Positions 18,114 through 18,423 of a stretch of DNA of 22,881 nucleotides are shown here, piece by piece; positions within the stretch are counted from its first letter, which is position 1; each line of letters opens with the position of its first letter. The position numbers were made by a program, and so were the translations under genes. The notes below the pieces were generated by a model that worked only from the letters and a program-made list of their open reading frames with translations, did no database searches and was not told the DNA's origin. Source of the DNA: a virus (Duplodnaviria; Heunggongvirae; Uroviricota; Caudoviricetes); the IMG/VR virus record IMGVR_UViG_2734482777_000003, one strand, 5' to 3'.

Positions 18114-18188
18114 TGGAGCGGGCAGCGGGAATCGAACCCGCATCATCAGCTTGGAAGGCTGAGGTAATAGCCATTATACGATGCCCGC
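18114..18188 (-). tRNA. tRNA-Gly (anticodon UCC)
   Basis: Reverse complement reads GCGGGCATCGTATAATGGCTATTACCTCAGCCTTCCAAGCTGATGATGCGGGTTCGATTCCCGCTGCCCGCTCCA. Good cloverleaf, anticodon loop CUUCCAA, discriminator U, encoded CCA; recognised as E. coli glyT-like. Confidence 0.8.
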
Positions 18189-18191
18189 ATA

Positions 18192-18267
18192 TGGTGCCGA
18201 CTACCGGAATCGAACTGGTGACCTACTGATTACAAGTCAGTTGCTCTACCTACTGAGCTAAGTCGGC
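18192..18267 (-). tRNA. tRNA-Thr (anticodon UGU)
   Basis: Reverse complement reads GCCGACTTAGCTCAGTAGGTAGAGCAACTGACTTGTAATCAGTAGGTCACCAGTTCGATTCCGGTAGTCGGCACCA. Anticodon loop CUUGUAA; thrU-like; one apparent mismatch in the T stem. Confidence 0.7.
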
Positions 18268-18269
18268 AC

Positions 18270-18346
18270 TGGACCGCCACCGGGGACTCGAACCTCGCAC
18301 ACTCAACTTAAAGGGTTGACGCTCTTTCCTGATGAGCTAGTGGCGG
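18270..18346 (-). tRNA. tRNA-like gene with non-canonical features (anticodon loop CCUUUAA, formally UUU/Lys)
   Basis: Reverse complement reads CCGCCACTAGCTCATCAGGAAAGAGCGTCAACCCTTTAAGTTGAGTGTGCGAGGTTCGAGTCCCCGGTGGCGGTCCA. Cloverleaf is foldable but has C at position 33, a C1-G72 pair and an A-C mismatch in the T stem. May be an unusual phage tRNA or a pseudo-tRNA. Confidence 0.4.
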
Positions 18347-18347
18347 T

Positions 18348-18423
18348 TGGTGGCCCTTGCTGGATTTGAACCAGCGACCTGGCGATTATGAGTCGCTCGC
18401 TCTCACCACTGAGCTAAAGGGCC
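18348..18423 (-). tRNA. tRNA with CAU anticodon, most like tRNA-Ile2 (ileX/ileZ-like; Met cannot be excluded)
   Basis: Reverse complement reads GGCCCTTTAGCTCAGTGGTGAGAGCGAGCGACTCATAATCGCCAGGTCGCTGGTTCAAATCCAGCAAGGGCCACCA. Anticodon loop CUCAUAA; strong resemblance to E. coli ileX. Confidence 0.75.

Follow-up and report, generated by a model that had tools for sequence, protein, structure and literature searches.

Late-region arrays of transfer RNA (tRNA) genes are a known property of lambdoid phages. The closest described relative of the locus considered here is the ileZ-argN-argO array of Shiga toxin (Stx)-converting lambdoid phages (933W type; Stx2a_F349, AP012530), which lies past Q, pR' and tR' and before the late genes. 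The slot between the antiterminator gene Q and the lysis genes is occupied in other lambdoid and P22-like phages by a tRNA-Asn(GUU)/tRNA-Thr(UGU) pair, found downstream of Q in phages 21, SfI, Sf6 and ST64T (PMC3636060). Also relevant are the thrU-tyrU-glyT-thrT operon of the host, E. coli K-12, and phage T5's tRNA-Lys(UUU), which acts against the PARIS defence system. Here we describe an array of four tRNA genes, t1 to t4 in order of transcription, at positions 18114-18423 on the minus strand of a 22,881-nucleotide stretch of Caudoviricetes DNA (IMG/VR record IMGVR_UViG_2734482777_000003; this whole stretch is referred to below as the window).

The cassette is best described as a compositional variant of the Stx-phage array. 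The two share their first gene (t1 matches ileZ at 76/76 positions), a promoter-like sequence upstream, and an argN-type second gene, the argN scaffold being 84% identical to t2 and set off by the same 1-nt spacer. They differ in that the argN anticodon is UCG (Arg) whereas that of t2 is UUU (Lys), accompanied by C33 and compensatory stem changes; in that the third Stx-phage gene, argO(UCU), is replaced here by exact copies of thrU and glyT; and in that stx follows the Stx-phage array whereas lysis genes follow this one. Intermediate mosaics of the form ileZ-Lys-argO (PPompW phages and phage Evi) bridge the two arrays. The pair of phages 21, SfI, Sf6 and ST64T likewise includes a Thr(UGU) gene, but in SfI the pair consists of non-host sequences with anticodon stems unlike those of the host, whereas the Thr gene of the window is an exact thrU and no Asn gene is present.

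The explanation that we favour, holding it somewhat more probable than not, is that this is a self-contained late-region tRNA cassette of a lambdoid prophage that enlarges the tRNA pool for A-ending codons, in which t2 most likely serves as a nuclease-insensitive Lys backup. Drawn from gene identities, homologies, genomic context, distribution, promoter conservation and codon statistics, it presumes expression and processing of the array as well as lysine charging and nuclease insensitivity of t2. As an array the locus is ordinary; its sole non-routine element appears to be the switch of anticodon from argN to Lys, in which C33 is conserved and the PARIS site is predicted to be lost.

ARAGORN called four tRNA genes, and only these four, in the 22.9-kb window, and all of them score above the Rfam RF00005 gathering threshold of 29 bits with E-values of 1e-14 to 1e-6, far past chance (Table 1). 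The genes are separated by 1 nt (t1/t2), 2 nt (t2/t3) and 3 nt (t3/t4; TAT), and each of the four encodes its 3' CCA. The features of bacterial elongator tRNAs, namely U8, A14, G18G19 and a T-loop of the GTTCRA type, are present throughout, and a seven-nt anticodon loop with U33 is found in t1, t3 and t4, t2 alone failing in this respect. Minimum free energy (MFE) folds of the single tRNAs gave no cloverleaves, as expected for unmodified sequences, and were not used as evidence. In an E. coli prophage that is 98.3% identical (OkiPb01676), the NCBI Prokaryotic Genome Annotation Pipeline (PGAP) lists the order Q, tRNA-Ile, tRNA-Lys, tRNA-Thr, tRNA-Gly, holin, naming the first of these bacteriophage antitermination protein Q, and places HK97-type head genes and lambda-type tail genes downstream of the holin. 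Within the window, genes for DUF1327/YdfR, lysozyme and Rz come after that for the holin (Pfam). The array thus comprises four real tRNA genes, and in this lambda-like E. coli prophage they separate Q from the lysis genes.

An earlier sequence-only reading of this DNA had proposed four tRNA-like genes at 18114-18423, with spacers of 1-3 nt and an encoded CCA in every gene, between a Q-like gene and the lysis cassette, and ARAGORN, Rfam and Pfam bear it out on each of these points down to the exact coordinates. It named no strand, and the order in which it gave the genes is that of minus-strand transcription. Its view of the CAU gene as Ile2-like agrees with the PGAP tRNA-Ile call and with the identities given below; the one gene that it set apart as non-canonical is t2, which has the lowest Rfam score, C33, an A.C mismatch in the T-stem, C1-G72 and U73. 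Its statement that Stx phages carry ileZ-argN-argO at this locus, and that the set here is different, was confirmed by comparison, and the likeness to host thrU and glyT proved stronger than it had suspected. Its interpretation is thereby supported, although it missed the argN scaffold of the Lys gene, the cassette's own putative promoter, the wide annotated distribution and the outcome for Lys codons.

Apart from its identity to ileZ, t1 is 92% identical to K-12 ileY and 89.5% to ileX. Its acceptor stem (GGCCCUU/AAGGGCC) belongs to an Ile2-type body with C4-G69 and C5-G68 and not to a Met body, and these two acceptor pairs are those used by TilS. It is an AUA-reading Ile2 tRNA, and not a Met tRNA, presumably with C34 converted to lysidine. 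The other two canonical genes are identical to host genes over the whole mature tRNA including CCA, t3 to K-12 thrU (76/76) and t4 to K-12 glyT (75/75), so that in the host thrU-tyrU-glyT-thrT operon the mature thrU and glyT sequences equal them base for base. The tyrU and thrT genes of that operon, its 116-nt spacer and all of its host flanks are missing from the phage array.

A simple, recent capture of a DNA segment from this host operon was considered and excluded, because the flanks would have come along and no similarity extends outside the mature t3 and t4 sequences. Their origin then has two readings: either the capture is older and selection or gene conversion has kept the sequences identical, or its boundaries lay at the ends of the mature tRNAs.

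Table 1. Features of the tRNA cassette and its surroundings (positions in the window)
Feature	Coordinates	Strand	Basis
Late antiterminator Q gene, 231 aa (upstream neighbour)	18633..19328	-	Pfam PF06323 Phage_antiter_Q, E 8e-90
pR'-like late promoter, TTGCAA-17-TATATT, which overlaps the Q gene's end	18621..18649	-	Consensus scan, 9/12 matches
Short pR' leader RNA, tR'-like hairpin and U-run at about 18572-18545	18544..18616	-	Fold, terminator scan
Putative dedicated tRNA promoter, TTGCAA, 17-nt spacer, TATTAT	18433..18461	-	Consensus scan; ends 9 nt before t1
t1, tRNA-Ile2 (CAU)	18348..18423	-	ARAGORN; Rfam 72.5 bits; PGAP tRNA-Ile in relatives
t2, non-canonical tRNA-Lys(UUU)	18270..18346	-	ARAGORN Lys(ttt); Rfam 44.4 bits; PGAP tRNA-Lys in relatives
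t3, tRNA-Thr(UGU)	18192..18267	-	ARAGORN; Rfam 73.8 bits
t4, tRNA-Gly(UCC)	18114..18188	-	ARAGORN; Rfam 64.9 bits
Two long, nearly perfect hairpins 3' of t4 (18112-18056; 18053-17983)	17983..18112	-	Fold
Intrinsic terminator-like hairpin and T-run, between cassette and holin	17891..17909	-	Terminator scan, fold
Class II (P21-type) holin, first lysis gene	17606..17821	-	Pfam PF04971, E 1.4e-35

Distribution, promoter and mosaic structure of the cassette

The array is already known as an annotated feature of hundreds of RefSeq E. coli genomes and several GenBank phages. A 451-nt region is present at a coverage of at least 80% in 539 of 5426 complete E. coli genomes (~10%), many of these copies being 100% identical and annotated by PGAP as Ile/Lys/Thr/Gly, and the Lys allele by itself occurs in 798 of the 5426. 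All four genes are also found in phages vB_EcoM-606R7, vB_EcoS-689R5 and PhiR47_1. A search of 185,579 GTDB species representatives found the anticodon arm of t2 in E. coli and Shigella flexneri and in no other. No paper on this particular array, and nothing relevant on ileZ, argN or argO, was found in the searchable literature, within whose reach the original Stx-phage tRNA papers do not fall.

Scanning IMG/VR for the D-arm of the scaffold returned at least 120 loci; among the matches listed, 72 have the order Ile2-Lys-Thr-Gly and 42 the order ileZ-argN-argO, the rest being shortened versions. Together with ileZ-Lys-argO in the PPompW phages and Evi, and with stxAB-Thr-Gly-S in Stx phage phi467, these combinations indicate that the second slot has two alleles (Arg-UCG or Lys-UUU) and that the downstream part is either argO or Thr-Gly.

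In E. coli HS13-1 (3829-5781) an identical four-tRNA cassette stands behind a different, shorter Q-family gene, with three opposite-strand hypothetical genes inserted between that gene and the tRNAs, an arrangement from which it follows that the cassette travels independently of the Q module.

The promoter-like sequence upstream of t1 is identical in Stx2a_F349, PPompW and Evi. Among 67 four-gene loci there are five upstream haplotypes, otherwise unrelated to one another, that keep a -35 element (TTGCAR/TTGATT), 17-nt spacing and a -10 element (TATTAT). Nucleotide diversity (pi) is 0.003-0.009 in the tRNA block and about 0.13-0.35 in the adjoining flanks, where it is high because several unrelated flank types abut the block; the contrast shows a conserved island, and with mosaic flanks of this kind it gives no clean substitution-rate ratio for purifying selection. 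Since the promoter is kept across unrelated flanks, the cassette has the look of an autonomous, moron-like unit, which Q-modified polymerase would also read through. Transcription would start at its own sigma-70 promoter upstream of t1, with an additional contribution from Q-antiterminated read-through from pR'. The tetracistronic precursor would then be cut at each 5' end by RNase P, after which exonucleases would trim the 1-3-nt trailers to the encoded CCA, the route taken by tightly packed tRNA precursors of E. coli and T4.

Identical tRNA blocks with unrelated sequence on both sides could also be read as the signature of a block that serves chiefly as a homology anchor for shuffling of the Q/lysis module, or as an attachment target, with decoding secondary. 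The existence of ileZ-Lys-argO, ileZ-Lys-Thr-Gly, stx-Thr-Gly and ileZ-argN-argO mosaics fits such a role, as does the ISEc20 element that adjoins the array in PPompW. Mosaic joints at conserved genes follow generally from conservation, however, and are no sign of function, and neither att-like repeats nor an integrase were seen at the array. We give this explanation very little credence.

A lysine anticodon on an argN scaffold

The unusual member of the array is t2. It is 84% identical to the argN (UCG) of Stx phages and 52% identical to host lysT, figures by which a relationship to host tRNA-Lys is ruled out. Judged by its sequence, t2 is a phage-lineage argN-type tRNA with an anticodon arm remodelled to UUU, and not a host copy. 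Its anticodon loop is CCUUUAA, with C33 in place of the near-universal U33, and it retains from the scaffold C1-G72, U73 and the A51.C63 mismatch in the T-stem. Differences from argN fall at 6 of 17 positions in the anticodon arm and at 6 of 60 elsewhere. Two of the changes are compensatory, U-A to C-G at 7:66 and G-C to A-U at 30:40, and a third converts U27.G43 to U27-A43. Over 12 distinct scaffold variants 94.8% of the cells are paired. Among the IMG/VR matches listed, C33 and the UUU anticodon are unchanged in all seven distinct variants of the Lys allele, nearly every copy of which has the loop CCUUUAA. These features suggest that the anticodon arm was remodelled under selection for a folded tRNA, and they do not resemble random decay.

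A rival account is that the genes are neutral passengers or decaying relics, hitchhiking with the Q-lysis module, with t3 and t4 held identical to the host genes by gene conversion with thrU and glyT and t2 a degenerating argN pseudogene. Several observations fit this account: t2 has the weakest Rfam score of the array, besides C33 and its T-stem mismatch; most genomes carrying its allele fall below 99% identity, some copies being structurally broken and unannotated; and scattered singleton mutations occur at conserved positions of the Thr and Gly copies. It is hard to reconcile with the compensatory nature of the changes relative to argN and the proportion of paired cells, with a loop fixed in nearly all copies, or with a promoter position kept in five diverged upstream contexts and a tRNA block that is near-invariant amid mosaic flanks. 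Moreover, the passage from UCG to UUU takes two specific substitutions as well as stem compensation, which is unlike random decay. We therefore consider the relic explanation improbable.

The Lys-allele tRNA of O157-type PPompW prophages lacks 1 nt of the D-stem, its acceptor stem contains a G.U pair, and argO and an ISEc20 insertion come after it (PPompW_132418, 2132-2207; E. coli 2013C-4187, 601-676). This tRNA is left unannotated by PGAP in RefSeq and is labelled tRNA-Lys in the GenBank phage records.

Codon supply and counter-defence

Codon usage was compared between 24 late genes from the window, comprising 5,375 codons, and 48 K-12 genes, comprising 14,426. The late genes are enriched in ATA (odds ratio (OR) 2.4, p = 0.001), ACA (OR 2.4, p = 6e-6) and GGA (OR 2.3, p = 1e-6), the codons corresponding to t1, t3 and t4, and Lys codons in total amount to 51 per 1000 in the late genes vs 41 per 1000 in K-12. 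The AAA share of Lys codons, on the other hand, is 0.67 in the late genes vs 0.79 in K-12. The codon-usage test proposed with the sequence-only reading therefore came out in favour of codon supply for ATA, ACA and GGA and against it for Lys codons. The Ile2, Thr and Gly members are copies or close relatives of host tRNAs with one or two host genes, and for them codon supply is a reasonably good explanation; for Lys it is a poor one.

A rival account of the cassette is that of pure codon compensation, in which all four genes including t2 supply tRNAs for codons used more by the phage than by the host (AUA, AAA/AAG, ACA and GGA), the oddities of t2 being tolerated drift with no counter-defence involved. 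Beyond the 2.3-2.4-fold enrichments and the higher total of Lys codons, it accommodates exact host copies in t3 and t4: a search of the prophage Thr and Gly copies for escape mutations found none, most copies being host-identical and the variants scattered singletons. The same case has been argued for the tRNA-Thr of SfI, for which codon compensation was proposed on an ACA usage of 17.3% vs 7.1% in the host (PMC3636060). Lysine, however, is the least likely bottleneck of supply, because the lysT-lysQ cluster alone already gives K-12 at least five genes for tRNA-Lys(UUU). The low AAA fraction is a further difficulty, and the codons most enriched in the late genes are AGA, AGG and CGG (OR 3.5-6), yet the phage carries no Arg tRNA. 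Codon compensation also leaves the non-host scaffold and the remodelled anticodon arm of t2 unexplained. Taken as the whole explanation we think it rather unlikely.

A more specialised decoding role would have t2 tune programmed -1 frameshifting, setting the G:GT ratio at an A AAA AAG heptamer by means of its C33 loop. A dependence of A AAA AAG slippage on the properties of tRNA-Lys(UUU) is established at the dnaX frameshift site. On the minus strand of the window the tail-chaperone G open reading frame (ORF) ends at 7300-7286 with GTT AAA AAA AAG TAG and the T ORF lies in the -1 frame, which makes the G/GT frameshift site one of the A AAA AAG type; A AAA AAG is decoded only by tRNA-Lys(UUU), whose anticodon t2 carries, and the A-run is kept in two related loci with the same array. 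Only three informative loci reached the tail-chaperone gene, which is too few for an association with the Lys allele. The cassette also recombines independently of the tail module, as seen from its different Q in HS13-1 and its presence in Stx phages, and slippery sites of this kind function with host tRNA-Lys alone. This role is, in our estimation, most improbable.

The explanation that we favour, a self-contained cassette with t2 as a protected Lys backup, adds a role in defence to one in codon supply. The array would provide a larger pool of tRNAs for A-ending codons in phage development and possibly in the lysogen, and t2, as a Lys isoacceptor with a non-host anticodon stem-loop, would be a backup insensitive to tRNA-Lys nucleases such as AriB of PARIS. 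AriB targets E. coli tRNA-Lys(UUU), and T5 evades PARIS by means of variant Lys, Thr and Asn tRNAs (PMC11464382, PMC12409363); lambda is also restricted by PARIS (PMC9122126). At the cleavage site the host motif is UAAUC|A and that of T5 tRNA-Lys is UAAACC; U39A abolishes cleavage by AriB and A41C lowers it (PMC12409363). Where host tRNA-Lys reads U36AAUC|A41, t2 reads U36AAGUU41 and, with this motif and its 52% identity to lysT, it is without the published AriB recognition site. It may therefore be a nuclease-insensitive Lys tRNA. The resemblance to T5 tRNA-Lys lies in a phage-encoded Lys(UUU) isoacceptor with positions 39-41 off the host motif. The differences are that T5, which carries about 24 tRNAs, is virulent and that its resistance and rescue were demonstrated experimentally, whereas t2 belongs to a temperate prophage, has an Arg-tRNA scaffold with C33 and U73, and would be resistant by prediction.

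Several points weigh against this explanation. The published change that abolishes cleavage is U39A, whereas t2 has G39, and AriB requires contacts beyond the cleavage site too (PMC12409363). As a copy of thrU, t3 keeps the AriB site (UAAUCA); it is host-identical at this site, so a contribution through dosage is possible, whereas action as an escape variant is impossible. C33, U73 and the T-stem mismatch could leave t2 a poor tRNA in decoding or charging. Of the 798 E. coli genomes with the Lys allele, no more than 279 have it at an identity of at least 99%, and decayed copies (with a D-stem deletion, or with U8C/C11U), which PGAP leaves uncalled, are common, so t2 is often dispensable. As for the codon figures, the AAA share and the enrichment of arginine codons given above count here as well, and the enrichment as a whole may in part reflect the weak codon bias of mobile DNA.

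A broader and more tentative proposal, which we think doubtful though worth stating, is that the slot between Q and the lysis genes of enterobacterial lambdoid phages is a counter-defence locus directed at tRNA-cleaving immunity and not at codon supply alone. The alleles of the slot jointly cover the three main PARIS/AriB targets, with Lys(UUU) here and Thr(UGU) and Asn(GUU) in phage 21/SfI, and the non-host alleles are without a UAAU(C|A) site. The Asn and Thr stems of SfI read UAACCU and UAAGCG and contain no UAAU. On this proposal t2 would be an Arg tRNA remodelled into a Lys tRNA that is resistant to PARIS and perhaps, via C33, to PrrC. If it were true, the anti-PARIS strategy of T5 would extend to temperate phages, and t2 would exemplify a natural switch of tRNA identity under defence pressure.

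The re-analysis clarifies what the members of this array are, with host copies in t3 and t4, ileZ in t1 and an argN-derived Lys gene in t2, preceded by a conserved putative promoter of the cassette's own. Should t2 prove functional and insensitive to nucleases, temperate phages and lysogens would carry anti-PARIS tRNAs, and an Arg-to-Lys anticodon switch would be documented. The prediction would then be that about 5-15% of E. coli strains harbour a tRNA by which defences targeting tRNA-Lys are blunted, with relevance to the choice of therapy phages and to the biology of Stx-type phages.

Flanking transcription signals and other features of the window

The sequence-only reading had placed a pair consisting of a promoter and a short terminator before the array and another terminator past it. 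The former was recovered as the site at 18649-18621 followed by the hairpin and T-run at 18572-18545, and the latter as the terminator-like site at 17909-17891. The promoter-like site just past Q would fit a lambdoid pR', and the short RNA starting there is probably the lambdoid 6S-like pR' transcript. Folding the leader gave a 9-bp GC-rich hairpin followed by UUUUUU, and the terminator scan finds the same palindrome on the plus strand. The leader also matches the Salmonella prophage small RNAs (sRNAs) isrK (22.7 bits) and isrJ (24.5 bits), in both cases below the Rfam threshold.

The two hairpins downstream of t4 have an MFE of -54 kcal/mol (z = -6.2 vs shuffles) and belong to the major downstream haplotype that accompanies the Thr-Gly pair. 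An Rfam scan at E<=1 over 17600-18800 placed no family on either of them; it returned the four tRNAs, antisense artefacts (Plastid-ycf2), the sub-threshold isrK and isrJ matches on the leader and nothing else. The hairpins may have a part in processing or attenuation, or may belong to an sRNA that is missing from the annotation.

Elsewhere in the window, an HNH endonuclease gene (15797-16147, minus strand) lies directly upstream of the genes for the P27-family small terminase and for the large terminase according to the annotation of a near-identical prophage; this order of HNH and terminase is ordinary, being the one usual for HK97-like cos packaging. A type I toxin-antitoxin system of the hok/sok type was found on the minus strand at 22003-22178, together with a small ORF at 21853-22065; its sok RNA has an Rfam score of 112 bits, and hokD is annotated by PGAP in the near-identical prophage.

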